Below are positions 17,291 through 61,666 of a DNA stretch of 64,000 bases, one piece after another. Within the stretch, counting starts at the first letter, position 1, and each line of letters opens with the position of its first letter. A program made the position numbers and the translations under genes. The stretch is taken from positions 9,300,001 through 9,364,000 of the forward strand of contig OZ024761.1 in the NCBI GenBank assembly GCA_964016885.1. The letters are read 5' to 3'. The notes beneath the pieces were generated by a model. That model was not told where the DNA came from, did not search any database, and saw nothing but the letters and a program-made list of their open reading frames with translations. This stretch comes from Eledone cirrhosa (taxonomy: Eukaryota).

Positions 17291-20130
<2,840 letters not shown>

Positions 20131-20154
20131 CATGCTTCAAGTAAACTACCATTT

Positions 20155-20208
<54 letters not shown>

Positions 20209-20372: not shown

Positions 20373-20448
20373 GAAATGTTTAACCCCGACGGCAGAGCTC
20401 AAGCGCCGTCGAAACTGTTTGAGCTCTGTCATCGGGGTTAAACATTTT

Positions 20449-23274: not shown

Positions 23275-23659
23275 CTGAAAAAAAAAGGTAAAAGTAGAAT
23301 AAATATATATTAAAAATATAATTGTTTCTACTTTTGGCACAAGGCCAGCAATTATCCCAGTGCATTACTGGTACTTTATTTTATCGACCCCAGTTAACCT
23401 CGGTGGGATTTAAACTCAGATCCTAAAGGGGCGTAACTTTGTGCTACCGATACTGCTAATCCAAACCTAATTAATCATATCAAAAATATGATGCATTTAC
23501 AGACCTGCCAATCTCTAAAAGCCGTCCAAACGTGGACTACCATGAAATAAAGTACCCCCAAACGGGGAGAAATGAGGCAAAATGGGGAGATATTACATAA
23601 TGGTTTCTTATATAGGCACAAGGTCAGCTATTTTAAGGGGAGGGGAAAGTTGATTAAAA

Positions 23660-25012
23660 ATACTGAACAACACCGGAAACTTCCACATAAACCGCCTTTA
23701 CTTGAAACGTAGGCAGGGAGGCAGAGGCCTAACATCAGTCCAGACAACATTTGAATGTCGCATCATATCTCTCCGACAACATCTACGAACCTCGAAGCGT
23801 AGGAGCCCGCTTCTCGAGCAAGTCTATCTGCATGAAACAGATAAGATCATGAGAGTTGGGAAGGAACTCCTTGAGAGATATTCCCTGTGTGATAATCAAA
23901 CACTCACACCCAGGGATGTCGCTCAGCAGTATCGCAGTGAATCCATGGATGAAAAACTGCATGCTTATCAGCAAAAAATCATGCATGGATATGTTGCCAG
24001 GAAGCTCCAGAGTGAGAGTAATATAGATAAGGAAAGTAGTGTATCTTGGACCAACAACCGCTATATTGGCTCCCACTTTGAAGGATACGCTTTTGCAATC
24101 CAAGAACAGGAGATTAGCACGAAATACCTGATTCACAAAAGAGATAGGATGCAGGCAAACAACTAGATGTGATAACAAGTGCAGACTCTGCAGAACTAAC
24201 ATCGAGGATATCACCCATGTCATCAGCAGCTGCCCAAAGATGTCATCGCGGTACTATCTACCTAGGCATGATGTAGTGGCCAAAACACTGTACAATGCAG
24301 TTCGTAAAAAAGATAGCCCCGATGATAAACACATTAAAAGCTACAACAATGTGGAAGACATCCATGTACATAATATGAAAGAGTACTGGTGGAATGTTCC
24401 AGTAAAAACCCCAATAAAATGAAGGCATAACAGACCAGATATTATGATATGGGACAGAGAGAAGAAAACATGCACAGTAGTGGAAATTAGCTGCCCAGCA
24501 GATGCCAATATAATATCAAAGATTAGTGAAAAGGAGAATATTTATGCAGAACTGATGAGAAATCTGCAGATACGCCACCCTGATTACATCTTCAGATTTA
24601 TACCTGTGATTATTGGGGCACTGGGATATGTTAGTAACTGCCTCAATACAAATGTTGAGAAGCTAGGTTTCACAGGAACAGAAAGAACCCAACTAGTTAG
24701 GAAATTAAAAGGACAATCCATTAATGGAACAGTAAAAATATGTAAAACATTCCAAAAATTTTGCATCTAACAACTGCATATACACATGTACAGATACAAA
24801 GCATATACACATGCACACATACAACTCAAAACATACACATCCACACATACAATAACATCCATATCTACACATGCATGCATGCAGACATACATACATATCT
24901 ACCTAGTTGATGTTGTGTAAATTCCAATGAGAGAGTCTTGTGTCTATGTTAGAAACCGACTCTCTCTCTATTGGTAAAACTTTGTGAAATTATAAAACCA
25001 GAAGAACATACA
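23660..25012 (+). mobile_element. R4/Dong-like RLE non-LTR retrotransposon 3' part, in intron 3 antisense to the gene
   Basis: RLYLKRRQGGRGL, CCHC knuckle CRLC...HVISSC, RHD motif and RPDI...VEISCP endonuclease. One frameshift (about 24165) and one stop (24420). 3' UTR hairpin at 24924-24974. Confidence 0.85.
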
Positions 25013-29142: not shown

Positions 29143-31897
29143 AGTGACAGATGGGGAGGGCGAGAGAGATGGAGGCGATGACAGTGGGAGTTCATCTCCT
29201 CTGTGTTAGGACCCGGTGTACGTATATGTGATGGGGAAGGGCGAGAGAGATGGTGGCGATGACAGTGGGAGTTCATCTCCTCTGTGTTAGGACCCGGTGT
29301 ACGTATATGTGATGGGGAAGGGCGAGAGAGATGGAGGCGATGACAGTGGGAGTTCATCTCCTCTGTGTTAGGACCTGGTGTACGTATATGTGATGGGGAA
29401 GGGCGAGAGAGATGGAGGCGATGACAGTGGGAGTTCAACTCCTCTGTGTTAGGACCCGGTGTACGTATATGTGATGGGGGAGGGCGAGAGAGATGGAGGC
29501 GATGACAGTGGGAGTTCATCTCCTCTGTGTTAGGACCTGGTGTATGTATATGTGATGGGGGAGGGCGAGAGAGATGGAGGCGATGACAGTGGGAGTTCAG
29601 CTCCTCTGTGTTAGGACCTGGTGTACGTATATGTGATGGGGGAGGGCGAGAGAGATGGAGGCGATGACAGTGGGAGTTCAACTCCTCTATGTTGGGACCC
29701 GGTGTACGTATATGTGATGGGGGAGGGCGAGAGAGATGGAGGCGATGACAGTGGGTGTTCAACTCCTCTGTGTTAGGACCTGGTGTACGTATATGTGATG
29801 GGGAAGGGCGAGAGAGATGGAGGCGATGACAGTGGGAGTTCAACTCCTCTGTGTTAGGACCTGGTGTACGTATATGTGATGGGGAAGGGCGAGAGAGATG
29901 GAGGCGATGACAGTGGGTGTTCAACTCCTCTGTGTTAGGACCTGGTGTACGTATATGTGATGGGGGAGGGCGAGAGAGATGGAGGCGATGACAGTGGGAG
30001 TTCAACTCCTCTATGTTGGGACCCGGTGTACGTATATGTGATGGGGGAGGGCGAGAGAGATGGAGGCGATGACAGTGGGAGTTCAACTCCTCTGTGTTAG
30101 GACCTGGTGTACGTATATGTGATGGGGGAGGGCGAGAGAGATGGAGGCGATGACAGTGGGAGTTCAGCTCCTCTGTGTTAGGACCCGGTGTACGTATATG
30201 TGATGGGGGAGGGCGAGAGAGATGGAGGCGATGACAGTGGGAGTTCAGCTCCTCTGTGTTAGGACCTGGTGTACGTATATGTGATGGGGGAGGGCGAGAG
30301 AGATGGAGGCGATGAGAGTGGGAGTTCAGCTCCTCTGTGTTAGGACCTGGTGTACGTATATGTGATGGGGGAGGGCGAGAGAGATGGAGGCGATGACAGT
30401 GGGAGTTCAGCTCCTCTGTGTTAGGACCTGGTGTACGTATATGTGATGGGGGAGGGCGAGAGAGATGGAGGCGATGAGAGTGGGAGTTCAGCTCCTCTGT
30501 GTTAGGACCTGGTGTACGTATATGTGATGGGGGAGGGCGAGAGAGATGGAGGCGATGACAGTGGGAGTTCAGCTCCTCTGTGTTAGGACCTGGTGTACGT
30601 ATATGTGATGGGGAAGGGCGAGAGAGATGGAGGCGATGACAGTGGGAGTTCAACTCCTCTGTGTTAGGACCTGGTGTACGTATATGTGATGGGGAAGGGC
30701 GAGAGAGATGGAGGCGATGACAGTGGGAGTTCAACTCCTCTGTGTTAGGACCTGGTGTACGTATATGTGATGGGGGAGGGCGAGAGAGATGGAGGCGATG
30801 ACAGTGGGAGTTCATCTCCTCTGTGTTAGGACCTGGTGTACGTATATGTGATGGGGGAGGGCGAGAGAGATGGAGGCGATGACAGTGGGAGTTCAACTCC
30901 TCTGTGTTAGGACCTGGTGTACGTATATGTGATGGGGAAGGGCGAGAGAGATGGAGGCGATGACAGTGGGTGTTCAGCTCCTCTGTGTTAGGACCTGGTG
31001 TACGTATATGTGATGGGGGAGGGCGAGAGAGATGGAGGCGATGACAGTGGGTGTTCAGCTCCTCTGTGTTAGGACCTGGTGTACGTATATGTGATGGGGG
31101 AGGGCGAGAGAGATGGAGGCGATGACAGTGGGTGTTCAGCTCCTCTGTGTTAGGACCTGGTGTACGTATATGTGATGGGGGAGGGCGAGAGAGATGGAGG
31201 CGATGACAGTGGGTGTTCAGCTCCTCTGTGTTAGGACCTGGTGTACGTATATGTGATGGGGGAGGGCGAGAGAGATGGAGGCGATGACAGTGGGAGTTCA
31301 GCTCCTCTGTGTTAGGACCTGGTGTACGTATATGTGATGGGGAAGGGCGAGAGAGATGGAGGCGATGACAGTGGGTGTTCAGCTCCTCTGTGTTAGGACC
31401 TGGTGTACGTATATGTGATGGGGGAGGGCGAGAGAGATGGAGGCGATGACAGTGGGAGTTCAGCTCCTCTGTGTTAGGACCTGGTGTACGTATATGTGAT
31501 GGGGAAGGGCGAGAGAGATGGAGGCGATGACAGTGGGTGTTCAGCTCCTCTGTGTTAGGACCTGGTGTACGTATATGTGATGGGGGAGGGCGAGAGAGAT
31601 GGAGGCGATGACAGTGGGAGTTCAGCTCCTCTGTGTTAGGACCTGGTGTACGTATATGTGATGGGGAAGGGCGAGAGAGATGGAGGCGATGACAGTGGGA
31701 GTTCAACTCCTCTATGTTGGGACCCGGTGTACGTATATGTGATGGGGGAGGGCGAGAGAGATGGAGGCGATGACAGTGGGAGTTCAGCTCCTCTATGTTG
31801 GGACCCGGTGTACGTATATGTGATGGGGGAGGGCGAGAGAGATGGAGGCGATGACAGTGGGAGTTCAACTCCTCTGTGTTCAGACCCGGTGTACGTA
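29143..31897. repeat. 81-bp GC-rich satellite x34 in intron 1
   Basis: gatgggggagggcgagagagatggaggcgatgacagtgggagttcagctcctctgtgttaggacctggtgtacgtatatgt; no indels seen. Confidence 0.97.
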
Positions 31898-32762: not shown

Positions 32763-32970
32763 TAACGATGAGAATTAATGAAAACCTGAAATCAAAAGAA
32801 AGGAAAGAAAAAACAAAAACAAAACAATAGGGGCCAACTGTCACTAAAGAAGACCGAAGGGAGATACAGTTGTTATATATATATGTGTATATATGTATGT
32901 AAAGGAACGAAGAGTGCTCTATGAATGCTACAATAACTGTATGCATGGTTTATTACATAATATATATATA

Positions 32971-33146
32971 TAGGAAAAGATTCAGGGCCCCGACGGCTGA
33001 GCTCCGGCCTTTTCGACAGTTCTGATCTAGTCGTCGAAACGGCCGGAGCTCAGCCGTCGGGGTCCTGACTCTTTTCCTATTACCCACTCTACTACCCTAA
33101 GTATTGAGTACTCTGGTGCGTTATGGTCCATCTGGTTTCTTACCAT

Positions 33147-33151
<5 letters not shown>
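32971..33151 (+). mobile_element. Family A fold-back element
   Basis: taggaaaag...palindrome...ttttccta plus tail, within (TA)n. Confidence 0.85.
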
Positions 33152-33310: not shown

Positions 33311-33355
<45 letters not shown>

Positions 33356-33362
<7 letters not shown>

Positions 33363-33560
33363 TAACCAGATTAAAGTTTAAGCAAAGAAATGCTGCTTTC
33401 ACCCTTAACAGGGATCTTCTGTATATAACAGGTAAACAGAAATAACAACACAATCGGTACAGTATATGGAAGGAATATATTAGGTAAACGCTTGATATAG
33501 CAGGAAGAGGGTCTTAACGTTTCGGACGCTAGCCCTTCATCAGAAGAAAGTTTGAGAAAT
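33356..33560 (-). mobile_element. Family E hammerhead element
   Basis: Hammerhead followed by about 155 nt and (TA)n. Its 3' end recurs as a palindrome at 35997-36133. Confidence 0.65.
33512..33547 (-). ncRNA. Minimal type I hammerhead ribozyme (family E)
   Basis: Minus: TCTT CTGATGA A GGGC-TAGC-GTCC GAA ACGT T AAGA. Confidence 0.75.
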
Positions 33561-33635
33561 AATATAGATTGGAGGGACGGGCGGGGTAGTACATACATAC
33601 ATACTGACGTACATGCATATGTACGTACATACATA

Positions 33636-33667
<32 letters not shown>

Positions 33668-33671
<4 letters not shown>

Positions 33672-33830
33672 AAAAAGTATGACCCGTTTCGACGGCTATT
33701 TCTAGAAATTGAGCTCTGCCGTCGGGGTCATACTTTTTCCTATTTTTTTGCTATTTCCCAGTCTACTACCCTAAGTATTGAGTACTCTGGTGCGTTATGG
33801 TCCATCTCGTTCCTTACCACAATTCCTATG

Positions 33831-34922: not shown

Positions 34923-35118
34923 TATGTGTATGTGTATATATGAATATAATGGCCAACATGCCAGATCATGCCAGATATGTTGTTTACGTAATAGGAAGTA
35001 AACATGAACGCAATACAAATTTATTCAATGAATTGTGACTGACTCTAATGAACCTATCAAGGTCTTCCATTCAAGCATTTCTCTGTCTCTCTATCAGTGC
35101 ATCTATCTATCTATTATA

Positions 35119-35295
35119 TAGGAACGAGTAGGACCCCGACGGCTGAGCTCAAGCCGCTTCGACGGAATTAGCCGTCGAAACGGCTTGAGCTCAGCCGTCG
35201 GGGTCATACTCGTTCCTATTACCCACTCTACCACCCTAAGTATTGAGTCCTTTGGTGCGTTATGGTCCACCTGGTTCTTTACCATATTTCCTTCG

Positions 35296-35297
<2 letters not shown>
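35119..35297 (+). mobile_element. Family A fold-back element
   Basis: taggaacgagta.gaccccgacggctgagctcaagccg / cggcttgagctcagccgtcggggtc.tactcgttccta plus tail. Confidence 0.85.
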
Positions 35298-35525: not shown

Positions 35526-35570
<45 letters not shown>

Positions 35571-35573
<3 letters not shown>

Positions 35574-35817
35574 GATATATTAACAAATGGAAACTATAAT
35601 TATAAAACCATATTTACTTCATTATACATATTTCAAGGACACCAAGTTAAATTATGGTGTGCTTTCATCAGATGAAATATAATATAGAGCAGTTTTATAA
35701 ATGAATATTGACATACCCTTATATCGTATTTTTACTCCAATAATTTGTTGAGTGCTTTATATCAGTTATAAAATATTTGCTTGTTGTATCCCAACAATTT
35801 AAATAGAACTTCTACAC
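35571..35817. mobile_element. Family B hammerhead element with 5' inversion
   Basis: The hammerhead half is on the minus strand and the 3' end (...ttgagtgct...cttctacac) on the plus strand. Homologous to 51436-51738 and 54698-55330. Confidence 0.75.
35616..35678 (-). ncRNA. Minimal type I hammerhead ribozyme (family B)
   Basis: Minus: ATTTCAT CTGATGA AAGCACACCA-TAATTTAACT-TGGTGTCCTT GAA ATATGTAT A ATGAAGT. Confidence 0.8.
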
Positions 35818-35825
35818 ACACACAC

Positions 35826-35913
<88 letters not shown>

Positions 35914-35996
35914 ATAATAATAAATTTGAAGACTAAAATCCAAAAAGGGCTCGATAAGGATAAATATATATCAAATATATAAGAACCGTAGAGCAA

Positions 35997-36125
35997 ATAT
36001 TTATTAAAATAACAGATTAAAGTTTAAGCAAATAATCGCTGCTTTCACCCTTAACGGGATCCTCAGAAGATTCCGTTAAGGGTGAAAGCAGCGATTCTTT
36101 GCTTAAACTTTAATCTGTTATTTTA

Positions 36126-36891: not shown

Positions 36892-36938
36892 TACTCCGAA
36901 GAAACCAAACCTCGGTTTGGAGGAAACAATCGTAAGCA
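36892..36938 (+). ncRNA. Degenerate hammerhead motif
   Basis: CT CCGAAGA AA CCAAAC-CTCG-GTTTGG AG GAA ACAATCGT A AG. Core has U4C; stem I is short. Confidence 0.45.
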
Positions 36939-36988
36939 TATAAATGATTTGAACAGAACTTTGATTCATATAACTTATATATATATAT

Positions 36989-37341
36989 AAGAAAGTGAAG
37001 TTTTTTTACAAAATGAAAAATAACCGAGGTGTCCTACACGAGTGAAAGTATAAAGAAAAAAAAGCTGAAATCGAAAATGCAACTGGAGTCTTATTTAAAA
37101 AAAAAAAAAAAAAATTATTTGGTTCCTTTACCGGTTTCGCAGTTCTTCTGCTTTTCAAAACTAGAATAGAGATGGAGGGTTTGTGGTTTTCCTCAGATCT
37201 GAGAAAAACCACAGACCCTCCATCTCAACTATACTTTTGAAAATCAGAAGAACTGTGAAACCAGTAAAGGAACCAAATAAATATATATATTTTTTTAAAA
37301 ATAAGACTCCAGTTGCATCATTTTCGATTTCATCTGTATTT

Positions 37342-37345
<4 letters not shown>
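36989..37345. mobile_element. Family F fold-back palindrome
   Basis: Arms of about 130 bp centred on ctcagatctgag (37192-37203). Homologues at 42733-42880 and 53690-53793. Confidence 0.8.
37126..37161 (-). ncRNA. Hammerhead variant with U3-A8 core (family F, left arm of palindrome)
   Basis: Minus: GTT TTGAAAA GCAG-AAGAA-CTGC GAA ACCGGT A AAG. The mirror copy at 37234-37269 (+) is mutated. Confidence 0.6.
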
Positions 37346-37398
<53 letters not shown>

Positions 37399-37426
37399 CT
37401 ATGCATGAACCCATAATCCTTTATTT

Positions 37427-37482
37427 ACTGCTATATATATTTCGATGATAGCCATTGAATGGCTATGACCTCATCAGGCAGT
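37427..37482 (-). ncRNA. Minimal type I hammerhead ribozyme
   Basis: Minus: ACTGC CTGATGA GGTCATAGCCAT-TCA-ATGGCTATCATC GAA ATATATAT A GCAGT. All core nucleotides are intact. Confidence 0.82.
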
Positions 37483-37566
37483 TAGTCAGTTCTTAGATAT
37501 GCCAGCTCTGTGTTTATGGTGTTGATGGTATTAGAGTCTTGGGACATATATATATATATATATGTG

Positions 37567-37630
<64 letters not shown>

Positions 37631-37949
37631 AGAGTATTGAAGATATATATATATATATATATTCATATGCACATATATATGTGTGTCTGTGTATTTATAT
37701 ATTATATATATTACATATTATAAACAGGCATATATGTATATAGACTCACACACACATACATATAAATATAAATATATATATATATATAATCCATGAACAG
37801 AAGGATTAAGGTAAAAGAATGGTGAGACAGACAGACAGACAGACAGAGAGACAGACAGACAGAGAGACAGACAGACAGATATACAGACAGACATATCAGG
37901 ATGAAGAATAAATGTACTCATTACCCACATCGATTATACACACACAATT

Positions 37950-38032
<83 letters not shown>

Positions 38033-38215
38033 TACATACATACAAATATATATATATATATATATACATACATACAAATATATAAATATATATATATATA
38101 TACATACATACAAATATATATATATATATATATACATACATACAAATATATATATATATACATATATATATACATACATACATACAAATATATAAATATA
38201 TATTTGTACATACAT

Positions 38216-38268
<53 letters not shown>

Positions 38269-38271
38269 CAT

Positions 38272-38312
<41 letters not shown>

Positions 38313-38317
38313 CAAAT

Positions 38318-38356
<39 letters not shown>

Positions 38357-38363
38357 CATACAT

Positions 38364-38408
<45 letters not shown>

Positions 38409-38719
38409 CAGCGTAGAATATGTCAAAGTAATGTTTTAAACAATAAAATATATATACTGTGTATATATATATATATATATATATACACAATATATATATT
38501 TTATTGTTTAAAACATTACTGTGACATGTTCCACGCTGTATCTTATATACTGTCCGTTGTCTATTCTTTTCAGACCCACGACGCATCTATTAACATTGTA
38601 TTTTAATTGTTTCACGAGTGTTTTCTAGTTGGTTGCTATGATATATTGATGGACAGCCATTGCTATTGAATCTACAAATAATCAATAAAGACGTAGTCCT
38701 ATTTTATACTTTTTCTTTT

Positions 38720-38752
<33 letters not shown>

Positions 38753-38963
38753 CTTCTTCTTCTCTATCTGAGATGAACGGGTCGTTAACAGTTAACTTCT
38801 TATTGCAGGGAAGGTGAGCTTTATAATCCGGCTATCCATACTGCTAACGTTGTTATCCGGGTATCCGGTGTATTTACGTTGCTAACTTTAGAATCCGGGA
38901 TCCGGGTGTCCATATCGCTAATATTATTATTATCCGCTAATATTATTATTATAAGGTTGGATT

Positions 38964-39686
38964 CCTTTCATCCTTACGGGGTCGATAACATAAAGTACCA
39001 GTAATGTACTGGGTAATTGCTGGCCTTGTGCCTAAAGTAGAAACAATTATTATTATAAGGTTGGATTGGCAGTATTGGTAGAGGGTCGGACGCCATGCTT
39101 TGACGTATAGAGTTACGGCCCTTGCCATTCTGAGTTCAAATCCCGCCAAGGTTAACTTTGCCTTTCATCCTTACGGGGTCGATAAAATAAAGTACCAGTA
39201 ATGTACTGTGTTAATTGCTGGCCTTGTGCCAAAAGTAGAAACAATTATTATTATCCGTTGGCGGTGGATTGGCAGTATCGAAAGAGGGTCGGACGCCATG
39301 CTTTCCAGCATAGTTACGTCCCTTTGCGGTCTGAGTTCAAATCCCGCCGAGGTTAACTTTGCCTTTCATCCTTACGGGGCCGATAAAATAAAGTACCAGT
39401 AATGTACTGGGTTAATTGCTGGCCTTGTGCCAAAAGTAGAAACAATTATTATCCGGGAGCTGGGTGTCTACATTGCTAATATTATCATCCTGGATCTGCA
39501 GTGGATTGGCAGTATCGGTAGAGGGTCGGACACTATGCTTTGCAGCTAAGAGTTACGGCCCTTTATGGTCTGAGTTCAAATCCCGCCGAGGTTAACTTTG
39601 CCTTTCATCCTTACGCGGGTCGATAAAATAAAGTACCAGTAATGTACTGAAATAATGGCTGGCCTTGTACCAAAAGTAGAAACATT
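38964..39686 (+). mobile_element. Four tandem SINE-1 copies inside a 33-bp minisatellite
   Basis: SINE consensus interleaved with atccgggagctgggtgtctacattgctaatatt-like units (38826-39860). Confidence 0.85.
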
Positions 39687-39862
39687 TATCATCCGCGATC
39701 TGGGTGGCCATATCGCCAATAAAATCATCCGGGAGCTAGGTGCCTACGTTTCTAACTTTACAATCCGGGATCCGGGTGTCCATATCGCTAATATTCTTAT
39801 CCGGGAGCTGAGTGTCTACATTGCTAACGGTGTCTACGTTAGTGATATTATCATCCGGGGTC

Positions 39863-40342
39863 CTAATACCCCTTACATTTAATACATTAAGCTGACTAGG
39901 GAGAGGTATTAATACCCCTTACACACAAGAAGGAAAGTTAACCAGGCGGGGAGGATATTAATACCTTTTACAATTAAGAAACAGATTTGACTTAGGGAGG
40001 TACCTAATACCCTTTACACTTAAGGAACAAAGATTACTAGGGTGGTATCTAATACCCTTTACAATTAAGGAACAAAAATGACTAGGGAGAGGTATCTAAT
40101 ACCCCTTACAATTAAGGCACAAAGATTATTAGGGAGGGGTATTTATACCTCTTACAATTACGAAACAGATTTGACTTAGGGAGGTATCTAATACCCTTTA
40201 CAATTAAGGAACAAAGATTACTAGGGAGAGGTATCTAATACCCTTTACAATTAAGGAACAAAGATTACTAGGGAGAGATACCTAATACCCTTTACAATTA
40301 AGGAACCAAGATGACCAGGGAGAGGTATTTATATCCCTTACG
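39863..40342. repeat. About 40-bp minisatellite
   Basis: taataccctttacaattaaggaacaaagattactagggagaggtatc-like units. Confidence 0.85.
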
Positions 40343-40544
40343 ATAAAGAAAGAAAAACAAGAGAGAGGTAAAGTGAGAAAAAGAAATGAAAGAGAATGAA
40401 AACCTGTGGCAAAGGAAACACAAATGTGGATAAAAACTGACAAACAAGGGTAACTATAAAACAGCTGAACGGTTTCTGTTGTTGAAGCTTTTCGTACCTT
40501 CCTCCATGTACTGGAAGATGTTGGTTATGATTGGTAGATCTTTG

Positions 40545-40700
40545 AGGGTTAGGGTTAAGGTTAGGGCTGGTGTTGGGGTTTGGGTTCGGGGTTAGGGATT
40601 GGGTTTGGGTTAGGGTTAGGGTTCAGGTTAAGGTTGGGGTTACGGTTTGGGTTGGAGTTGGGGTTAGGGTTTGGGTTAGTGTTAGGGTTAAATTAGGTTT
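40545..40700 (+). repeat. Degenerate interstitial (TTAGGG)n
   Basis: ggttagggttagg mixed with variant hexamers. Confidence 0.7.
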
Positions 40701-41118
40701 TAAGCTATCCTCTCTCTTTCTCTCTCACTCTCCACCCACCCTCTCCCTATTTCAGACAGGTATTTTTTTTTTTACATTAGTGTACATAGTGCTATAGTGT
40801 TTCTGGGTAATGGTGATTGACCGAAGTTGTTTCAAGTCAACAAGGCTGTTGTTACAGAGAGTAATTGCGTTGCTTCAGGGTTTAAATAATATATTTTAAA
40901 ATAAACCGAATTTGTTTTGTCTGAAATGAAATTATGTCCAGAGACAACAGATATTAAATGATGTTATTTCAGAGAATACCGACATTTCTTCAAATTTATA
41001 TAAATTGTTTCGGTCATTAACGAAAATAATTTTGGTACAACTAATAATATTTTCAGCGATCAACTAATCTTGTTTCAAAGATCAAATGAAATTCTTTATA
41101 AAATCAACGAAAGCTTCT

Positions 41119-41695
41119 TCAAGGATGAACTGCCGAACAAAGACGAACTGATCAACAAAGAGAAACTGATCAACAAAGATGAACTGCCAAATAAAGACGA
41201 ATTGATCAACAAAGAGAAACTGATCAACAAAGATGAACTGCCAAATAAAGACGAATTGATCAACAAAGAGAAACTGATCAACAAAGATGAACTGCCAAAT
41301 AAAGACGAATTGATCAACAAAGATGAACTGCCAAATAAAGACGAATTGATCAATAAAGAGAAACTGATTAACAAAGATGAACTGCCAAATAAAGACGAAT
41401 TGATCAACAAAGAGAAACTGATTAACAAAGATGAACTGCCAAATAAAGACGAATTGATCAACAAAGAGAAACTGATCAACAAAGTTGAACTGCCAAATAA
41501 AGACGAATTGATCAACAAAGAGAAACTGATCAACAAAGATGAACTTCCAAATAAAGACGAATTGATCAACACAAAGGAATTGAACAATAAAGATGAACTG
41601 CCCAACAAAGACGAACTGATCAACAAACAGAATTTGAACAACGAAGATGAACTGCTGAACAAAGATGATCTGATCAACGAAGATGATTGATCAAG
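41119..41695. repeat. 15-bp minisatellite with 45-bp higher order
   Basis: aaagatgaactgcca / aataaagacgaattg / atcaacaaagagaaa-type units. Confidence 0.9.
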
Positions 41696-41911
41696 AAAGA
41701 CCCGATAATTTGAATTAAATTTAGCTCATTCAGATTAGCTTATTATACTGGAAAATATAATCATGGGTATATATTATAAAAGGTGGAATTGTCACAACAG
41801 TAATGCTTTTAAATGCAGGTAAAATCAATCAGGCTCACGTTGGGTCAAAAGAACAACAACATCAACAATATTAACAACAGGAATTTTAGATAAACGTGAG
41901 ATCTTCTACAC

Positions 41912-42105
41912 CAGGCATGTCAAACTGAAGGTCCTCCCGAGGGTCACATATGTGTTTTCTGAGGGCCACACACGACAATTAATTGCGCACATTAAAAGTA
42001 ATTTTTTAAAAATTTTATATTACAAAGATAAAACATGCTCGCCCTGTAAAAACCTTTGTGCGGGCCGCAGGTGTGCTGTAAAGGGCCGCATGTTTGACAT
42101 ACCCG
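41912..42105. mobile_element. hAT (Charlie-like) MITE
   Basis: TIRs caggcatgtcaaac / gtttgacatacccg; perfect 8-bp TSD ttctacac (41904-41911, 42106-42113). Confidence 0.9.
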
Positions 42106-42280
42106 TTCTACACAATATATATTGATCAACATAAATGATTAGCGTACGGTTGAAGCAAATGAGACTTGCTGTGTTTCTATGTACGACTTGTGAGCTTATG
42201 GATTATAGCGCCAATATATCTAAAAGACGTGTAGGTATATTTCAGTAAAAATAAAACAAAGTATATATTTATATATATAA

Positions 42281-42315
<35 letters not shown>

Positions 42316-42414
42316 CATGCAACATGAAACGGTGATTTTATTTCTCATTACTTGCTACATTTTTTATACCTTCACACACACTCTCTCTCTCTCTTTCACA
42401 CACACACACGCACA

Positions 42415-42465
<51 letters not shown>

Positions 42466-42644
42466 ATATATATATATATATATATATTATCAAATTACAT
42501 TTATAAAAAAAAAGCCTTCGTGAGCCCCCCTTTTTTAAGTAAGAAGAAATTCAAACACTCATATATGAAAAAACAACCTGACCCCCCCCCCCCTTGTTTG
42601 AAGAACTTTGTAACGCGAACTGGTGCGAAATTTATTATACTCAT

Positions 42645-42740
42645 TGACCAACCAATCAAATTACTTCTCTAAAAACGTGGCGTTTCGAGCCACTTTTTTC
42701 CGTATAAAACAAGTAACATTCAAAGACCAACCAGATGTGA
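42645..42740 (+). promoter_or_regulatory. Putative Pol II promoter of family F element (CCAAT, TATA, initiator)
   Basis: ccaatc at about 42653, TATAAAA at 42703-42709, and CA initiator with the A at 42733, 30 bp after TATA and about 40 bp before the hammerhead. Confidence 0.45.
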
Positions 42741-42771
42741 GAAAAACCACAGACCCTCCATCTCAACTCTA

Positions 42772-42807
42772 CTTTTGAAAAGCAGAAGAACTGCGAAACC
42801 GGTAAAG
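42772..42807 (+). ncRNA. Hammerhead variant with U3-A8 core (family F)
   Basis: CTT TTGAAAA GCAG-AAGAA-CTGC GAA ACCGGT A AAG. Confidence 0.65.
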
Positions 42808-43118
42808 GAACCAAATAAATATATATATATTTTTAAAAAGTAAGACTCCAGTTGCATTTTCGATTTCATCTTTTTTTCTTTATATATATATATATATATA
42901 TAAATAGAAAAAGAGAGGGGAGGCAAAGATATACATTCTATAGTGGAACTTTTGTTAGGGAAATAGCATCTGATCAAATAGACAAACATACACACATATA
43001 TTTACATACATACATACATACCTATATATGCATATATACTTACATAATATATACATACAACCATACATTTGTTCAAACATATATATATATATATATGTGG
43101 TGTGTGTTAAGTAATTAA

Positions 43119-46507: not shown

Positions 46508-46950
46508 GTATTGTTTCTACTTTAGATACAAGGCCAGCAATTTCAAGAGCAGAGGAGAACGTCGATTAGATCGACCCCCAGTGCATTACTGGTACTTTAT
46601 TTTATCGACCTTCCGTAAGGATGAAAGGCAAAGTTAACCTCGGCGGGATTTGAACTCAGACCGGAAAGGGGCGTAACTCTATACTGCAAAGCATCGTGTC
46701 CGACCCTCTACCGATACCGATAAGAGGGGGAAAGTCTATTAAATCAACCCCCAGTGTATTACTGGTACTTTATTTTATCGACCCCCGTAAGGAGGAAAGG
46801 CAAAGTTAACCTCGGCGGGATTTGAACTCAGACCGGAAAGGGGCCTAACTCTATACTGCAAAGCATGGTGTCCGACCCTCTACCGATACCGATAAGAGGG
46901 GGAAAGTCGATTAAATCAACCCCAGTGTATTACTGGTACTTTATTTTATT
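46508..46950 (-). mobile_element. Tandem SINE-1 copies
   Basis: About 2.4 head-to-tail copies. Confidence 0.85.
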
Positions 46951-46987
46951 GCTAGTACTCATTTTTTTTCCAGCTGAGTATACTGGA

Positions 46988-48975
46988 GCAATGGGGAATG
47001 AAGTGTTTTGCTCAAGAACGCAACAGGTAACCCAGCCCAGGAATCGAACCCACGACGGTATAATCGTAAGTCCAACAGCCTTACCACTAGGGCAACGTGA
47101 AATGAAGTCTTTTGCTCAAGAACACAACACGCAACCCAGACCAGAAATCGAACCCACGACGGTATAATCGTAAGTCCAACAGCCTTACCACTAGGGCAAC
47201 GTGAAATGAAGTCTTTTGCTCAAGAACACAACACGCAACCCAGACCAGAAATCGAACCCACGACGGTATAATCGTAAGTCCAACAGCCTTACCACTAGGG
47301 CAACGTGAAATGAAGTCTTTTGCTCAAGAACACAACACGTAACCCAGCCCAGGAATCGAACCCACGACGGTATAATCGTAAGTCCAACAGCCTTACCACT
47401 AGGGCAACGTGAAATGAAGTCTTTTGCTCAAGAACACAACACGCAACCCAGTCCAGAAATTGAACCCACGACGGTATAATCGTAAGTCCAACAGCCTTAC
47501 CACTAGGGCAACGTGAAATGAAGTCTTTTGCTCAAGAACACAACACGTAACCCAGCACAGGAATCGAACCCACGACGGTATAATCGTAAGTCCAACAGCC
47601 TTACCACTAGGGCAACGTGAAATGAAGTCTTTTGCTCAAGAACACAACACGCAACCCAGTCCAGAAATTGAACCCACGACGGTATAATCGTAAGTCCAAC
47701 AGCCTTACCACTAGGGCAACGTGAAATGAAGTCTTTTGCTCAAGAACACAACACGTAACCCAGCCCAGGAATCGAACCCACGACGGTATAATCGTAAGTC
47801 CAACAGCCTTACCACTAGGGCAACGTGAAATGAAGTCTTTTGCTCAAGAACACAACACGCAACCCAGTCCAGAAATTGAACCCACGACGGTATAATCGTA
47901 AGTCCAACAGCCTTACCACTAGGGCAACGTGAAATGAAGTCTTTTGCTCAAGAACACAACACGTAACCCAGCCCAGGAATCGAACCCACGACGGTATAAT
48001 CGTAAGTCCAACAGCCTTACCACTAGGGCAACGTGAAATGAAGTCTTTTGCTCAAGAACACAACACGTAACCCAGCCCAGGAATCGAACCCACGACGGTA
48101 TAATCGTAAGTCCAACAGCCTTACCACTAGGGCAACGTGAAATGAAGTCTTTTGCTCAAGAACACAACACGCAACCCAGTCCAGAAATTGAACCCACGAC
48201 GGTATAATCGTAAGTCCAACAGCCTTACCACTAGGGCAACGTGAAATGAAGTCTTTTGCTCAAGAACACAACACGTAACCCAGCCCAGGAATCGAACCCA
48301 CGACGGTATAATCGTAAGTCCAACAGCCTTACCACTAGGGCAACGTGAAATGAAGTCTTTTGCTCAAGAACACAACACGCAACCCAGTCCAGAAATTGAA
48401 CCCACGACGGTATAATCGTAAGTCCAACAGCCTTACCACTAGGGCAACGTGAAATGAAGTCTTTTGCTCAAGAACACAACACGTAACCCAGCCCAGGAAT
48501 CGAACCCACGACGGTATAATCGTAAGTCCAACAGCCTTACCACTAGGGCAACGTGAAATGAAGTCTTTTGCTCAAGAACACAACACGTAACCCAGCCCAG
48601 GAATCGAACCCACGACGGTATAATCGTAAGTCCAACAGCCTTACCACTAGGGCAACGTGAAATGAAGTCTTTTGCTCAAGAACACAACACGTAACCCAGC
48701 CCAGGAATCGAACCCACGACGGTATAATCGTAAGTCCAACAGCCTTACCACTAGGGCAACGTGAAATGAAGTCTTTTGCTCAAGAACACAACACGTAACC
48801 CAGCCCAGGAATCGAACCCACGACGGTATAATCGTAAGTCCAACAGCCTTACCACTAGGGCAACGTGAAATGAAGTCTTTTGCTCAAGAACACAACACGT
48901 AACCCAGCCCAGGAATCGAACCCACGACGGTATGATTGTACGTCCAAAACCCTAACCACTAATCCATGCGCCTCC
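46988..48975 (-). repeat. 104-bp tandem array (19 units) of a tRNA-like SINE head
   Basis: Exact 104-bp period (47092, 47196, 47300 ... 48860). Flanks continue into the SINE body (46950-46990) and 5' end (48960-48975). Confidence 0.95.
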
Positions 48976-49371: not shown

Positions 49372-49858
49372 TGTGTATATATATTGGTTGAGCAAACGTC
49401 ATTTGGTGCTTGGGATTATTTTTAGTTGCAGGTATTTAGATGATGATGATGATGATGATAATGATTTCTACTTTAGGCACAAGACCAGCAATTTGGGAGG
49501 CGGGGAAAGTCGGTTAAATCGACACCATGCTCTGCAGCATAGTGTTATGGCCATTTACGTTCTGAGTTCAAATCACGCCGAGGTTAACTTTACCTTTCAT
49601 CCTTACGGGGGTCGATAAAATAAAGTACCAGTAATACATATATATTTAAACCAGTACATTACTGGTACTTTATTTTATCGACCCCGTAAGGATGAAAGGC
49701 AAAGTTAATCTCGGCGTGATTTATTTGAACTCAGACCGTAAGGGGTCGTAACTCTATGCTACAAAGCATGGTGCCCGACCCTCTACTGATACTGCCAATG
49801 GTTTCTACTATAGGCAAAAGGCCAACAATTAACGATAAAAAAATTGGTGTTTACCTAC

Positions 49859-49988
49859 CTTCGCAAGTAGAACTGCGTTGGCTGAAAATCCTTTTCAACT
49901 GATCCCTGTTTATATTCATAGCACAAGTAGTTAGACAGAATATCCACGCGACCAACAGATATGACTCGAATCTGATTGTAGTCCTCAT
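49859..49988 (-). CDS. Prohormone-4 / IDLSRF-like neuropeptide precursor, coding exon 1 (signal peptide + N-terminal peptide region)
   Basis: Minus strand reads ttttttctcag|ATG...gaa g|gtaggt. It translates MRTTIRFESYLLVAWIFCLTTCA-MNINRDQLKRIFSQRSSTCE, with a hydrophobic signal peptide and a KR site. 130 bp; the phase 1 end matches the next exon. Confidence 0.8.
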
Positions 49989-50280
49989 CTGAGAAAAAAA
50001 AAATAACAGGAAAAAATTAAACAACAAATATATATAAAAAAAAATTAATTAATTAATTAAATAAATAAATATCATCATCATTGGGCGGTGGATTGGCAGT
50101 ATCGTTAGAGAGTCGGACACCATGCTTTGAAGCATAGAGTTACGTCCCTTTATGATCTGAGTTCAAATCCCGCCGAGGTTAACTTTGCCTTTCATCCTCA
50201 CGGGGTCGATAAAATAAAGTACCAGTAATACACTGGGTATTTGCTGGCCTTGTGCCAAAAGTAGAAACAATTATCACCAT

Positions 50281-50635
50281 CATCATCATTTTACGTCCGC
50301 TTTTCCCTGCTTGCAAGGGTGGGACGGGTCCTATTCAGCACAGCATCTCTCCACTTGTCACGGTCCTTCGTCATCTCCTCCATGAGTTTCAGCAATCTGA
50401 GGAGGTCTGCTCTTACCACATCCGCTCATGTTTTTCGTGGTCTACCCCTACTGCGTCTTCCTTCTACTGGGATTTCTTGACACTTCTTTATCCAGCGGTC
50501 ATCCTCCATGCACCACCACATGTCCATACTATCTCAGCCTTCTCCCCCTCACACCACAACTTATCCCTCTTATACCCAGTTTCTCTCTCAACTCATCTAT
50601 GCTTGGTCGTTCATGCACATTGACATTGCACGTCC
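50281..50635 (-). mobile_element. RTE-clade LINE 3' end
   Basis: Minus frames give RGRPRKT...VVRADL...MTKDRDKWRDAV, followed by a (GAT)n tail. Confidence 0.75.
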
Positions 50636-50698
50636 AATAAATATTATTGTTATACTTGGGGAGGGTCATAATGGTGTAATAATACTGCCAGAAATAAT

Positions 50699-51302
50699 TG
50701 TTTCTACGTTAGGCACAAGGCCAGCAATTACCCAGTGCATTACTGGTACTTTATTTTATCGACCCCGTAAGGATGAAAGGCAAAGTCAACCCCGGCGGGA
50801 TTTGAACTCAGACCGTAAAGGGACGTAACTATGCTGGAAAGCATGGCGTCCGACCCTCTACCGATACTGCCAATCCACCGCCCTAGCATGGTGTCCGACC
50901 CTCTACCGATACTGCCAATCCACCACCCTAACATGGCGTCCGACCCTCCACCGATACTGCCAATCCACCGCCCTAGCATGGTGTCCGACCCTCTACCGAT
51001 ACTGCCAATCCACCACCCTAACATGGCGTCCGACCCTCCACCGATACTGCCAATCCACCGCCCTATTGTCATCAACAATGACAATAATAATAAAGATTTC
51101 TAGTATAGGCACAAGACCAGCAATTTGGGGAGAGGAGAACATTACCCCAGTGTATTACTGGTGCTTTATTTTATCCCCCCCCCTCGTAAGGATGAAAAGG
51201 AAGGCTAACTTCAGTGGGATTTCAACTCAGGACGTAAAGAGCCGCAACTCTATGCTGTAAAGCATGGCGTCCGACCCTCTACATATACTGCCAATCCACC
51301 GC
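50699..51302 (-). mobile_element. SINE-1 dimer with 45-bp head amplified x5, bounded by 11-bp duplication
   Basis: ccagaaataat at 50688-50698 and 51303-51313; the uninterrupted site is seen at about 53070. Confidence 0.8.
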
Positions 51303-51435
51303 CCAGAAATAATAACAGAACACACTCACTGCTTGGTTGGTTTTCGCTTCTGTATCTTTTATATCTCCATAGTTAATTTATTTGGCAATCAACATTTATC
51401 ATTCATTGACTAACGGTTAAAAATACAGATATAAA

Positions 51436-51738
51436 AATACGATATATTAACAAATGGAAACTATATTTATAAAACCATATTTATTTCATTATACATATTT
51501 CAAGGACACCAAGTTAAATTATGGTGGGCTTTCATCAGATAAAATATAATATAGATCAGTTTTATAAATAAATATTGACATACCCTTAAAGAATGCGACC
51601 ATTTCTGTTGGAAGCCCCCGGATAGTTTCCATTTGTTAATATATCGTATTTTTACTCCAATAATTTGTTGAGTGCTTTATATCAGTTATAAAAATATTTG
51701 CTTGTTGTATCCCAACAATTTAAATAGAACTTCTACAG
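51436..51738. mobile_element. Family B hammerhead element with 5' inversion
   Basis: Inverts at ggatagt (about 51620-51626). Confidence 0.75.
51483..51545 (-). ncRNA. Minimal hammerhead (family B)
   Basis: Homologous to 35616-35678; CTGATGA and GAAA are intact. Confidence 0.72.
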
Positions 51739-52742: not shown

Positions 52743-52744
<2 letters not shown>

Positions 52745-52899
52745 CAAAGGAATTGTGGTAAGGAACCAGATGGATCATAACGCACCAGAGTACTCAATAC
52801 TTAGGGTAGTAGAGTGGGTAATAGGAAAAGACTCAGAACCCCGACGGTTGAGCTCCGGTCGTTTCGACAGCTAGATCCGAACTGTTCGAATCTAGCTGT
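52743..52899 (-). mobile_element. Family A element with short fold-back
   Basis: Tail and one full arm ending gaact, followed by only a 16-bp inverted copy. Confidence 0.8.
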
Positions 52900-52935
52900 G
52901 TATATATATATATATGAGTGTATGTGTGTGTGTAT

Positions 52936-53030: not shown

Positions 53031-53676
53031 ATTGTTATACTTGGGGAGGGTCATATTGTTGTAATATTGCCAGAAATAATAACAGAACACACTCACTGTT
53101 TGGTTAGTTTTTGCTTCTGTATCTTTTATATCTCCATAGTTAATTTATCTGTCAATCAATGTTTATCATTGTTTGACCAACGGTTAAAAATACAGACATA
53201 TTTATATATAGTCTGCCAAAGTTCTTTTGTCACACATCTGTGACAACATGAATGGTATTATTATGTTTCCTCCCGTTGTATTGTAATAGTACCACTGATG
53301 GTGTCTCAGAAAATGCAACTGGAGACTTTTTAAGAATATTTATTTATAAATATTGTTATACTTTGGGAGGGTCATGTTGCCAATAAGAAACACACGCACC
53401 AGTTGCTTTCACTTCAATTTATTATAATAAATTTATAAATTTAGGAATTTATAAATTTCTGGTTGGTTGGTTGGTTCCACAACCAGATAGTTGTTTATAT
53501 ATATTGTCAAAGTTCTTTCGTCACACATTCTGTGACCTCTTCAGTGACTGGGCATTCTTATTGACTGGTGCGTGTGTTTCTTATTGGCAACATGACCCTC
53601 CCAAAGTATAACAATATCGGTTTCAACACACGATTTCAGATAAAGAATCTTGCTAAACAAATTCAGAAACGAAATA
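53031..53676 (-). mobile_element. Families D (53031-53310) and C (53351-53676), with inverted terminal duplication
   Basis: Shared terminus atgaccctccc(c)aagtataacaata. 53351-53402 is inverted at 53564-53617. Confidence 0.7.
53506..53548 (-). ncRNA. Minimal hammerhead (family C)
   Basis: Minus: GTCA CTGAAGA G GTCACA-GAATG-TGTGAC GAA AGAACT T TGAC. Confidence 0.75.
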
Positions 53677-53865
53677 TTTATAAATAAATATTCTTAAAAA
53701 GACTCCAGTTGAATTTTCGATTTCTTTTCCTTATACTTCCACCCGTGTAGGACATCACGTTTTTTTTTTATTTAAAAAAACCTCATTTTCTTATATATAT
53801 ATATATATAGGCCTTTTTGAGATTTTCTCGCATGCTACGGATGCTTACCTCACAACAATGTTGCA

Positions 53866-54697: not shown

Positions 54698-54764
54698 AGT
54701 GCTTTTTATCAGTTAGAAAAATGTTTGCTTGTATCCCAACAATTTAAATATAACTTCTACACAT

Positions 54765-54829
<65 letters not shown>

Positions 54830-55328
54830 AGAAGTTATATTTAAATTGTTGGGATACAACAAGCAAACATTTTTCTAACTGATAAAAAGCACTCAACAAA
54901 TTATTGGAGTAAAAATACGATATATTAACAAATGGAAACTATATTTATAAAGCCATATTTATTTCATTATACATACTTCAAGGACACCAAGTCAAATTAT
55001 GGTGCGCTTTCATCAGATAAAGTATAATATAGATCAGTTTTATAAATAAATATTGACATACCCTTAAAGAATGCGACCATTTATGTTGGAAGCTCCCGGA
55101 TAGTGGGAGCTTCCAACAGAAATGGTCGCATTCTTTAAGGGTATGTCAATATTTATTTATAAAACTGATCTATATTATACTTTATCTGATGAAAGCGCAC
55201 CATAATTTGACTTGGTGTCCTTGAAATATGTATAATGAAATAAATATGGTTATACTTTGGGAGGGTCATGTTGCCAATGTTGAAATAAATATGGTTTTAT
55301 AAATATAGATTCCATTTGTTAATATATC

Positions 55329-55330
<2 letters not shown>
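54698..55330. mobile_element. Family B complex: tail-to-tail ends around (TA)n plus about 150-bp fold-back palindrome
   Basis: 54698-54762 is inverted relative to 54826-54893. Palindrome about 54950-55250, centred on ggatagt at about 55100. Confidence 0.8.
55181..55239 (+). ncRNA. Minimal hammerhead (family B), with mirror copy at 54963-55021 (-)
   Basis: TTTAT CTGATGA AAGCGCACCA...TGGTGTCCTT GAA ATATGTAT A ATGAA. The mirror copy has GAAG instead of GAAA. Confidence 0.75.
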
Positions 55331-55370
<40 letters not shown>

Positions 55371-56154: not shown

Positions 56155-57042
56155 ATATCATGATCAAACCGCCACCCTCCTTCAAAAACGAAGGAGAGGC
56201 GGTTTTCCTTTGTGTGATAGCTATGGCGAAAGAGGTTGTATGGTGGACGAGGTTGAAAGGGCTGAGATCAGACACCTTTCTCTCCAGCCAACAACTGATT
56301 TTTTTTTTCAAATACCACTTTGGAAGAAGAATCAGGATGGAGAGAGAGGTGCTGTACCCCAGCAAGTTTTATGAAAGGTGGGTGAAAGTGGCGAGAATGG
56401 CCCGAGTGAATGGGCCTTCTCTCTATATCAGCCTGTAGGTTGAGGAAAAGGAGGAGGAGAGGAAAGGAGTACAAACTCTTCGTACTCCTGGAGATGAGGG
56501 TTGTACATTTTTTCAGGGGTATGTGTTACCCATATGAACTGTCTCCCCTATTGGGGAAAATAGACTAATTTTTAAATTACATTTGTGATAATATTTTACA
56601 CGTTTTTATTGTATGTAAACTTCCCCCTTTGTAATTGTCCCCTTCTTTTGTGTCCCTGTGGCTAATAAAGAAACATATCTGTCTATCTATCTGTCTGTCT
56701 ATAATATGGCAAAAATGGCCCGAGTGAATGGACCTTCTCTGTATATAAACCTGTGTTTCAGGAAGACAAACAGAGAGAAGACAGGAACACCTACAAAGCG
56801 TGTTCCTGGTGTTGAGGGTTGTTCTATCCACGGGGTGTAAAACAACCCTGCAGTAACCCCCCCCCCCCTGTTGGGGATTTCAATTGTTATTTTATTAATG
56901 TTAAAGTTATATGATTTTTATGTAAAACCCCCGCCGTCACGTCTTGTAATGTCCCATTTTTGTACGCCCCTGTGGCAAATAAAGAAATATATATATATCT
57001 ATCTATCTCTAACTTTCTGTCTGTCTGTCTGTCTGTCTGTCA

Positions 57043-57078
<36 letters not shown>

Positions 57079-57812
57079 CTAACTGTCTGTCTGTCTGTCT
57101 GTCTATCTATATATCTATCTATCTGTCCCAGATGCGTGTGCTACGAGGAAGCCGTTGCACACGCATTAGTACACTGCTCGGGCGTAGCCGATCTGTGGGG
57201 CTATGTCGAACGACTGCTGTCAAGGGTGGGACCGATCCGGTTGACCACCGAGTCTATTGTAACGATCAAGCCGCCTCCCCTCTTCAAAAACGAAGGAGAG
57301 GCGGTGTTTCTGTGCGTAATAGCCATGGCGGAAGAGGTTGTATGGTGGACGCGTCTGAAAGGACTGAGGTCAGGCACCTTTCTCTCTGGCCAACAACTGG
57401 TCCGTTTCTTCCGATATCATTTCGGAAGAAGGATCAGGATGGAGAGAGAGGTGCTGCACCCCAGCCGTTTTTATGAAAGGTGGGTGAAAGTGGCGAGAAT
57501 GGCCCGTGTGAATGGGCCTTCACTCTACATCCATCAGACTGTAGGTGAGAAAGATGAAAGATCAAGGGAACACCCTCTCTCTGTGCTCCTGAGGAGAAGG
57601 GTTACACACTTTTTTCGGGGGTGTGTGCGACCCCCCAAGGCGCCTCCTCCCTATTGAGGATTTTGTTATTCAATTTATTTTTGTTATATTTTATATATTA
57701 TTTTTTTATATTTTGTTATTGCCTCCTCCTTATTGAGGACGCCTTGTTTTGTAAACTCCCCCCATTGTACTTGTCCCCTCTTTGATGCCCTGGTGGCAAA
57801 TAAAAAGAAAGT
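56155..57812 (+). mobile_element. Three head-to-tail Tx1/L1-clade LINE 3' ends in (TCTA/TCTG)n
   Basis: Copies at about 56155-56672, 56705-56987 and 57125-57810. Zinc-knuckle region HALVHC...LW...WWTR; each copy ends ccctgtggc.aataaa(g)aaa. Confidence 0.8.
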
Positions 57813-61157: not shown

Positions 61158-61205
61158 AATAGCCGTCGAAACGGCTTGAGCTCTGCCGTTGGGGTCATAC
61201 CTTTT

Positions 61206-61252
<47 letters not shown>

Positions 61253-61615: not shown

Positions 61616-61619
<4 letters not shown>
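61158..61619 (-). mobile_element. Family A: single arm (61158-61209) and near-complete copy (61443-61619)
   Basis: Same arm and tail sequences, separated by TA/TG microsatellite. Confidence 0.8.

Positions 61620-61663
<44 letters not shown>

Positions 61664-61666
<3 letters not shown>

Follow-up and report, generated by a model that had tools for sequence, protein, structure and literature searches.

Insertions of Penelope-like elements (PLEs) are marked by an inverted 5'-truncated copy, a one-sided tail and a bias for microsatellites, and how these elements come by their one-sided tails and their tandem or inverted arrangement is, according to the cited part of PMC8557442, still undefined (here and below, statements taken from a paper refer to the parts of it that are cited). 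In the PLEs with pseudo-long terminal repeats (pLTRs), namely Penelope/Poseidon, Neptune and Naiad/Chlamys, the transcription start and a hammerhead lie within the pLTR and the 3' part of the upstream unit acts as promoter region (PMC8557442, PMC2377424). The Drosophila Penelope promoter is internal and TATA-less with a downstream element, and in the partial tandem of this element the 3' part of the upstream unit supplies the regulatory region (PMC2377424). The only in vitro PLE system stops at initiation; in it, two internal starting points of reverse transcription by the green anole (Anolis carolinensis) Poseidon protein PAc delimit the tail, cleavage and extension involve both strands of the target, the RNA substrate is uncleaved and a dimer is predicted (PMC11167929). 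Schistosoma PLEs carry hammerheads with a U3-A8 core, arranged as opposite-strand pairs 100-700 bp apart (PMC4209133). In this work, we analyzed a short non-coding repeat, family F, in a 64,000-nt stretch of Eledone cirrhosa contig OZ024761.1 (positions 9,300,001 to 9,364,000; hereafter the window, to which all counts and single-copy statements refer). One F insertion is a head-to-head palindrome whose centre corresponds, to within a few nucleotides, to the predicted transcription start (+1) of a second copy that extends further upstream.

Family F shares with the pLTR-bearing PLEs the inverted 5'-truncated partner, the one-end tail, the microsatellite target and the arrangement of predicted start, hammerhead and upstream promoter region. 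It differs from them in having no open reading frame (ORF), in that the insertion is only a leader of about 150-210 nt, doubled, in its tail of about 60 nt (as against the published 30-40 nt), in its putative upstream TATA/CCAAT promoter and in the turn at the predicted +1 (PMC8557442, PMC2377424). The PAc system likewise combines AT-rich targets, a tail delimited by two reverse transcriptase (RT) starts and an uncleaved hammerhead upstream of these starts; however, PAc starts within an ORF and F would start in non-coding sequence, and the cited part of the PAc account describes neither head-to-head joining of cDNAs nor a turn where the RNA begins (PMC11167929). The Cercyon hammerheads of Schistosoma mansoni have the same U3-A8 variant, G10.1-C11.1 pair, palindromic helix III and opposite-strand pairing as F, whereas their helices II and I measure 7-8 and 4-5 bp and those of F 4 bp (without bulge) and 3 bp; no junction analysis is given in the cited part of that account (PMC4209133). 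Finally, animal non-LTR retrozymes are, as F is predicted to be, non-autonomous, related to PLE pLTRs and equipped with a type I hammerhead, but they form head-to-tail tandem arrays (bioRxiv 10.64898/2026.07.22.740005). We rejected a tandem retrozyme for F, as the F copies of the window are either solo or head-to-head.

Anatomy of family F and its predicted RNA start

The setting is AT-rich, microsatellite-laden eukaryotic repeat DNA. The F palindrome lies between a left (TA)n flank, the target site (36976-36989), and a right one (37345-37394), and is asymmetric: the left arm (36989-37200, minus strand, +1 to +212) measures 212 nt including the centre and carries the tail of about 60 nt (36989-37048), present on this arm only, while the right, tail-less arm (37195-37345, plus strand, +1 to +148) measures about 150 nt. 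The arms overlap by the self-complementary AGATCT (37195-37200), which is +1 to +6 of both. As DNA, the palindrome folds with z = -18.9, and 0 of 100 shuffles did as well. The second copy comprises a tail-less unit (42733-42880, plus strand, +1 to +148) and, upstream of it, a promoter-like segment (42490-42732, plus strand) whose apparent 5' limit is only a microsatellite edge. In BLAST, this copy becomes homologous to both arms from 42732/42733 onwards, and the window gave no further match to 42480-42735. This copy and the right arm stop at the same point, the short end (about +148, before TATA), and then pass into (TA)n, which bounds both F loci in a window that is itself very TA-rich. An older F-related fragment with tail (53691-53792, plus strand, about +100 to +212, about 80% identity; related tail at about 53733-53792) has an inverted partner at 53309-53347 (minus strand, about +90 to +128), and an insertion of another family, K, occupies the centre between them. 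As a separate observation, F may hold a small intron of Penelope-leader-like form, with donor-like GTAAAG/GTAAGA (42801-42845) and, in the tail (36989-37048), a pyrimidine tract ending in TAG.

The predicted start rests on the spacing of three motifs on the plus strand. The CCAAT box AACCAATCA (42650-42658; CCAAT itself 42652-42656), which we take to fit the NF-Y consensus, has the first base of CCAAT 81 nt 5' of +1; the TATA box TATAAAA (42703-42709) is at -30, its first T exactly 30 nt from A42733; and the initiator-like CCA(+1)GATG (42731-42737) contains A42733, the presumed first base of the RNA. In the palindrome arms the corresponding AGATC presumably completes the initiator consensus YYANWYY. 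The CpG observed/expected ratio is 1.6 at 42600-42732 against 0.77 for the unmasked window. A promoter-like pair was taken as TATAWAW at -26 to -34 plus CCAAT at -45 to -120 (windows chosen after the site had been seen). The unmasked background comprised 71,863 positions, and 103 of them (0.14%) had such a pair; among 20,000 dinucleotide shuffles the share was 0.09%. An earlier note on this DNA had reported the positions of the CCAAT, the TATAAAA, A42733 and the central AGATCT, together with the homology of the palindrome centre to +1 to +6, and all of these hold. It had also called the second copy promoter-bearing and pLTR-like, and the TATA/CCAAT statistics and the hammerhead described below support reading it as promoter-like and, from its sequence, as pLTR-like. 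Its description as the longer copy applies to the additional upstream sequence only, as the copy lacks the tail of about 60 nt. Because it has no tail and could not template the tailed arm, it is a product and not, as had been proposed, the source; it is itself an insertion in (TA)n. That palindromic copies are promoterless, as the note also had it, is no more than a possibility; the promoter of Drosophila Penelope is internal (PMC2377424).

The TATA/CCAAT statistics, the hammerhead located 43 nt downstream of +1 and the fixed 5' ends of two sister families (A and H, below) lead us to place the turn at the likely RNA 5' end, and we consider it probable that it marks a capped end. The location given in the earlier note is supported, with "exactly" to be read as within a few nucleotides: the symmetry axis falls between +3 and +4 and junction homology is ambiguous over -1 to +6. 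The longer copy reads AGATGT where the palindrome has AGATCT (mismatch at +5). The F palindrome by itself does not provide the independent support that had been attributed to it, being a single case whose AGATCT is one of only three 6-bp palindromes in the tailed arm; as AGATCT is self-complementary, it could have attracted the junction by itself. These points feed a different account, in which fixed 5' ends come from an RT stop at a structure, from RNA cleavage or from a DNA-level strand switch at a 6-bp palindrome, and the TATA/CCAAT pair is a coincidence or host DNA, a full-length F unit having landed beside host TATA/CCAAT. The upstream segment being single-copy in the window also suits this account, which we nevertheless regard as unlikely: the promoter pair is expected by chance at about 0.1%, the other two 6-bp palindromes of the tailed arm were not used as a turn, and the predicted hammerhead cut (+72) does not coincide with the turn at +1 to +6. 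On this last ground, we also rejected the identification of the turn with the hammerhead cut.

Hammerhead motif and class assignment

The longer copy contains a type I minimal hammerhead motif (42772-42807, plus strand) with a U3-A8 core at 42775-42781 and a predicted cut after A42804. From the start of the core to the predicted cut it covers 42775-42804 (+43 to +72 of the unit), and it consists of a 3-bp helix I, a 4-bp helix II closed by G-C, GAAA and the palindromic helix III ACCGGT. The hammerhead descriptor matched nine times in the window as against 0.05 times per shuffled 42 kb, and the F motif recurred in 4 of 5000 shuffles of the 148-nt unit. In cofolding, two ACCGGU copies pair with each other, and the ribozyme is predicted by this model to need a dimer. 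The tailed palindrome arm keeps the core, but its helix I is just 2 bp; in the tail-less arm the hammerhead is degenerate. The monomer RNA fold of +1 to +148 was no better than its shuffles (z -0.04). Rfam returned nothing at gathering score across the window and, at E<=10 over 36900-43000, 57 sub-gathering matches, mostly microRNA-type hairpins, with no hammerhead among them.

Further hammerhead motifs were observed elsewhere. A single-copy motif adjoins the F palindrome (37432-37477, minus strand), and another lies in an old palindrome (1969-2122) that turns just 5' of the ribozyme. At 33355-33585 (minus strand), a minimal hammerhead of Penelope type (33543-33516) has a GC box and a CCAAT ahead of it and a recurring unit behind it; the same unit forms the asymmetric palindrome 36005-36125 (within 35911-36125), with a degenerate hammerhead-like core, and one or two elements may be involved.

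As regards class, F has the traits expected of a PLE-derived element: a type I minimal hammerhead in what appears by sequence to be a terminal repeat, a tail at one end, an inverted copy joined on the 5' side and a target of AT-rich or microsatellite sequence. Each of the six frames of 42490-42880 is interrupted by stops. Pfam was run on 91 of 148 candidate frames, among them four over 42504-43001, the 57 left out being mostly SINE (short interspersed element), satellite or palindrome; it gave three sub-threshold matches (zf-RVT at 24132-24419, DUF6320 and TPR_NAA35), none of them PLE. F is not classed as an autonomous PLE, as no ORF with a telomerase-like RT and a GIY-YIG endonuclease was found in those 91 of 148 frames; nor was a parent element found in the window. 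Since the PLE anatomy is matched without an ORF and no PLE domain was found, F would work like a non-autonomous PLE leader. We are confident that it is a non-autonomous element of PLE type. Element class, hammerhead variant and the inverted, tailed layout are already known. For PLE inversion at a transcription start or PLE twin priming, we found no statement in the titles, abstract openings and passages of the literature as partially covered here; the supplements of PMC11167929, PMC8557442 and PMC4209133 may show such junctions. The cited parts of PMC12910113 and PMC6431247 contain nothing on junctions.

Junctions in sister families and the joining of two arms

Three further families of the window, labelled A, H and K in the present analysis, have the same layout as F. 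Family A comprises ten (TA)n insertions, nine of them asymmetric palindromes and one a solo arm, in two subfamilies, with a tail of about 80 nt (873-1069, 1627-1816, 2148-2335, 20374-20447, 32970-33151, 33670-33827, 35118-35296, 52744-52900, 61160-61210 and 61444-61620). It holds GAAAC, a 6-bp helix and GTC, resembling the 3' half of a hammerhead without its 5' half. Family H (54825-55332, 51432-51737 and 35570-35818, plus a solo tail fragment at 54698-54763) has a canonical-core type I hammerhead at about +83 to +131, a tail of about 90 nt, and one nested and two non-nested junctions. Family K (53350-53690 and 61665-62056) carries minimal hammerheads at 53544 (minus strand) and 61844 (plus strand), and both of its pairs have non-nested arms. 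The longer K copy has, upstream of its hammerhead, what we take to be NRF1-like and YY1-like motifs; K ends were also located inside H and F-related elements. Besides, an inverted repeat with a (TA)n centre at 38409-38600, whose left arm ends in a microsatellite while the right one continues, possibly has the same tail layout.

In the sister families, the junctions do not fit the random inversion points that the earlier note had named as refuting its reading. In family A, six of nine junctions have an arm at the same A (+1) and the other three at +6, +7 and +13, a clustering with p ~1e-7 if starts were uniform over 61 nt; in family H, an arm reaches the same A in two of three. The initiator half-consensus is ANWYY, and the three family starts AGATC, AGTYC and ACTAT include two full fits and one near fit to it (joint ~9e-4). 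Such initiator-like A starts in three unrelated families speak further against the account of fixed ends by RT stop, cleavage or strand switching, while the apparent beginning of family A inside a split hammerhead speaks for it.

The same census bears on a DNA-level origin, in which a palindromic element (a miniature inverted-repeat transposable element, MITE, or foldback element) amplifies as a unit and later deletion produces the junction differences and the asymmetry. F is non-coding, TA-flanked and an inverted repeat of about 350 bp, and central deletions would likewise leave microhomology junctions. The ends, however, are not symmetric, the last 60 nt at the outer end of the left arm having no partner; F, A and H have one-sided tails of 60-90 nt whose positions are fixed; all nine A centres differ in sequence and were therefore not copied from one master (F contributes a single centre); solo half-elements exist; and outward-facing hammerheads imply an RNA stage. 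The asymmetric ends, differing A centres, solo halves and hammerheads led us to reject the MITE reading, and we hold a DNA-level origin improbable. Palindromes are also a known class of chimera, which raises the question of a fold-back artefact of sequencing, amplification or assembly. The F palindrome is old enough for 20 of the 148 aligned positions to be unlike between its arms; over 132 columns, with the AT spacer +85 to +104 dropped, 10 and 7 differences are private to the arms and two to the longer copy. On account of the divergence of the arms, an artefact is barely conceivable and was rejected. The three-way divergence of the longer copy and the two arms fails to separate the remaining mechanisms.

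In the twin priming of L1, an inverted 5' segment is joined through microhomology. R2 proteins show snap-back, enriched after full-length cDNA synthesis (PMC11371274), and F likewise has an inverted 5' segment and a microhomology join. F departs from L1 and R2 in its (TA)n target and its lack of poly(A), and in that the second primer would sit at a fixed site and both arms can be full-length. Transferred to F, snap-back, the counterpart of the fold-back at the RNA 5' end in the earlier note, would mean that one cDNA primed at the long end extends to the 5' terminus of the RNA, doubles over at AGATCT and templates its own second arm up to the join with the target at the short end. It requires that the tail-less arm be nested in the tailed arm with a loop of a few bases. 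The precedent in R2 is in its favor, and micro-hairpins (AGATCT, TCTAGA) are found at junctions; as in the tailed A junctions (below), the arms are nested in F and at the H junction at 55100. At two H junctions, both non-nested, each arm has private sequence: at 51619 the tail-less arm starts at +1 and the tailed arm at +163, with 5-bp microhomology, and at 35721 they start at +39 and +181, with 2-bp microhomology. Snap-back cannot give these or either K pair without later deletion. The same applies to family A at 932, where both arms start at +1 with a 1-nt spacer (a single extra G, which might be a copied cap), and at 52880, with starts at +1 and +2 and no spacer. Moreover, it leaves unexplained why copying should stop exactly where solo tail-less copies end. 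With four non-nested H and K junctions and two A loops of 0-1 nt, the fold-back of the earlier note is retained as to location and not as to mechanism, and we consider snap-back possible but rather unlikely.

We lean somewhat towards two primed cDNAs instead of snap-back. Solo tail-less copies stop at the short end (F at 42880, A at 61210) and a solo tail copy lies at the long end (H at 54698-54763), so that both ends would be priming sites; furthermore, at all four non-nested H and K junctions no more than about 10-55 nt separate the start of the tailed arm from the short end downstream of it. From the sequences, two independently primed cDNAs would explain every junction without extra events, F being the limiting case with both at +1. 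Building on the anatomy, motifs and junction geometry directly observed, we propose the following course of transcription, priming and joining: (i) RNA polymerase II would start at the A equivalent to 42733 from an upstream CCAAT/TATA promoter, yielding an uncleaved RNA with a dimer-type hammerhead at +43 to +72; (ii) a PLE RT-endonuclease supplied in trans would nick both strands of a (TA)n target, by analogy with PAc in vitro; (iii) likewise on the model of PAc, reverse transcription would be primed at two sites inside the RNA, the short end (about +148, before TATA) and the long end (about +212), the 60 nt between these sites becoming the tail; and (iv) each cDNA would run off the RNA 5' end, and the 3' ends would anneal through AGATCT into a head-to-head palindrome of which only one arm has the tail. 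In the palindrome itself, the arms are seen to extend to +1, with AGATCT as their overlap. The copy at 42490-42880 would derive from a read-through or tandem transcript, primed once and left tail-less, and would in this way have kept a copy of the promoter; if 42490-42732 belongs to the element, such a transcript is what its template would have been. The whole reading, of F as a non-autonomous derivative of a PLE pLTR or 5' leader and of the palindrome as one insertion of two cDNAs, stands in our estimate at about an even chance. Twin priming and snap-back may both operate.

Several points weigh against this reading. The window offers only a single F palindrome that is intact and a single copy that is extended upstream, and a search for an exact 22-nt F sequence in bacterial and archaeal genomes gave no match and reached no further copies. 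In the Pfam-scanned frames there was no remnant of a PLE RT or GIY-YIG domain. Helix I of the F hammerhead has only 3 bp and does not form in the monomer fold, and the characterized Penelope promoter is TATA-less and internal, whereas the F pair lies upstream. Three of nine A and one of three H junctions have no arm at +1; neither family has an upstream-extended copy, so that their fixed ends are not established transcription starts, and the family A end, where there seems to be just the 3' half of a hammerhead, might reflect a stop at a structure. Starts at about +90 to +100 are seen in the older F-related pair (53309/53691), which is ambiguous, its centre being taken by K. At none of the eight tailed junctions of family A does the tail-less arm extend further 5' than the tailed one, and at all six unequal ones the tailed arm is ahead, a bias that is predicted by snap-back and not by symmetric twin priming. 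Lastly, later central deletions could yield the non-nested and loop-less junctions.

Other repeats of the window and implications

The remaining repeats are of other kinds. Copies of a tRNA-like SINE of about 200 bp, presumably octopus-type, are numerous and include tandem and inverted pairs (38964-39734, 49523-50883, 5684-6364 and 46560-46900). Coding remnants resembling long interspersed elements (LINEs) lie at 23654-24419 (with the weak zf-RVT at 24132-24419), 57013-57654 and 20000-20200, and 23654-24163 has five homologous proteins. Tandem repeats comprise an 81-bp array of 34 copies at 97% (29153-31897), an array with a unit of about 104 bp (46950-48950), an open-frame minisatellite based on 18 bp (41121-41690) and a degenerate TTAGGG-like tract (40545-40690).

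In the miniature insertions described here, of which there are many per 64 kb, 120-400 bp suffice to contain the junction as well as the two priming ends, and a genome-wide census of their junctions could tell twin priming and snap-back apart and put the rule that the turn falls at the start to a direct test. An upstream TATA/CCAAT promoter would represent a promoter type distinct from that of Penelope. It is conceivable, though we advance it tentatively, that PLE RTs routinely insert two cDNAs, one per nicked strand and each from its own internal start, which are joined head-to-head; where both run off the capped 5' end, the result would be a strong-stop palindrome recording the transcription start to the base. 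If this is true, a single mechanism would cover the one-sided tail of PLEs as well as their inverted copy, such palindromes would be a fossil map of transcription starts, and the host would contain a large, self-renewing source of near-perfect double-stranded RNA (dsRNA). If the host is an octopus, the palindromes would be candidates for a source of the unusually high dsRNA potential and adenosine-to-inosine hyper-editing treated in the cited part of PMC5625713.

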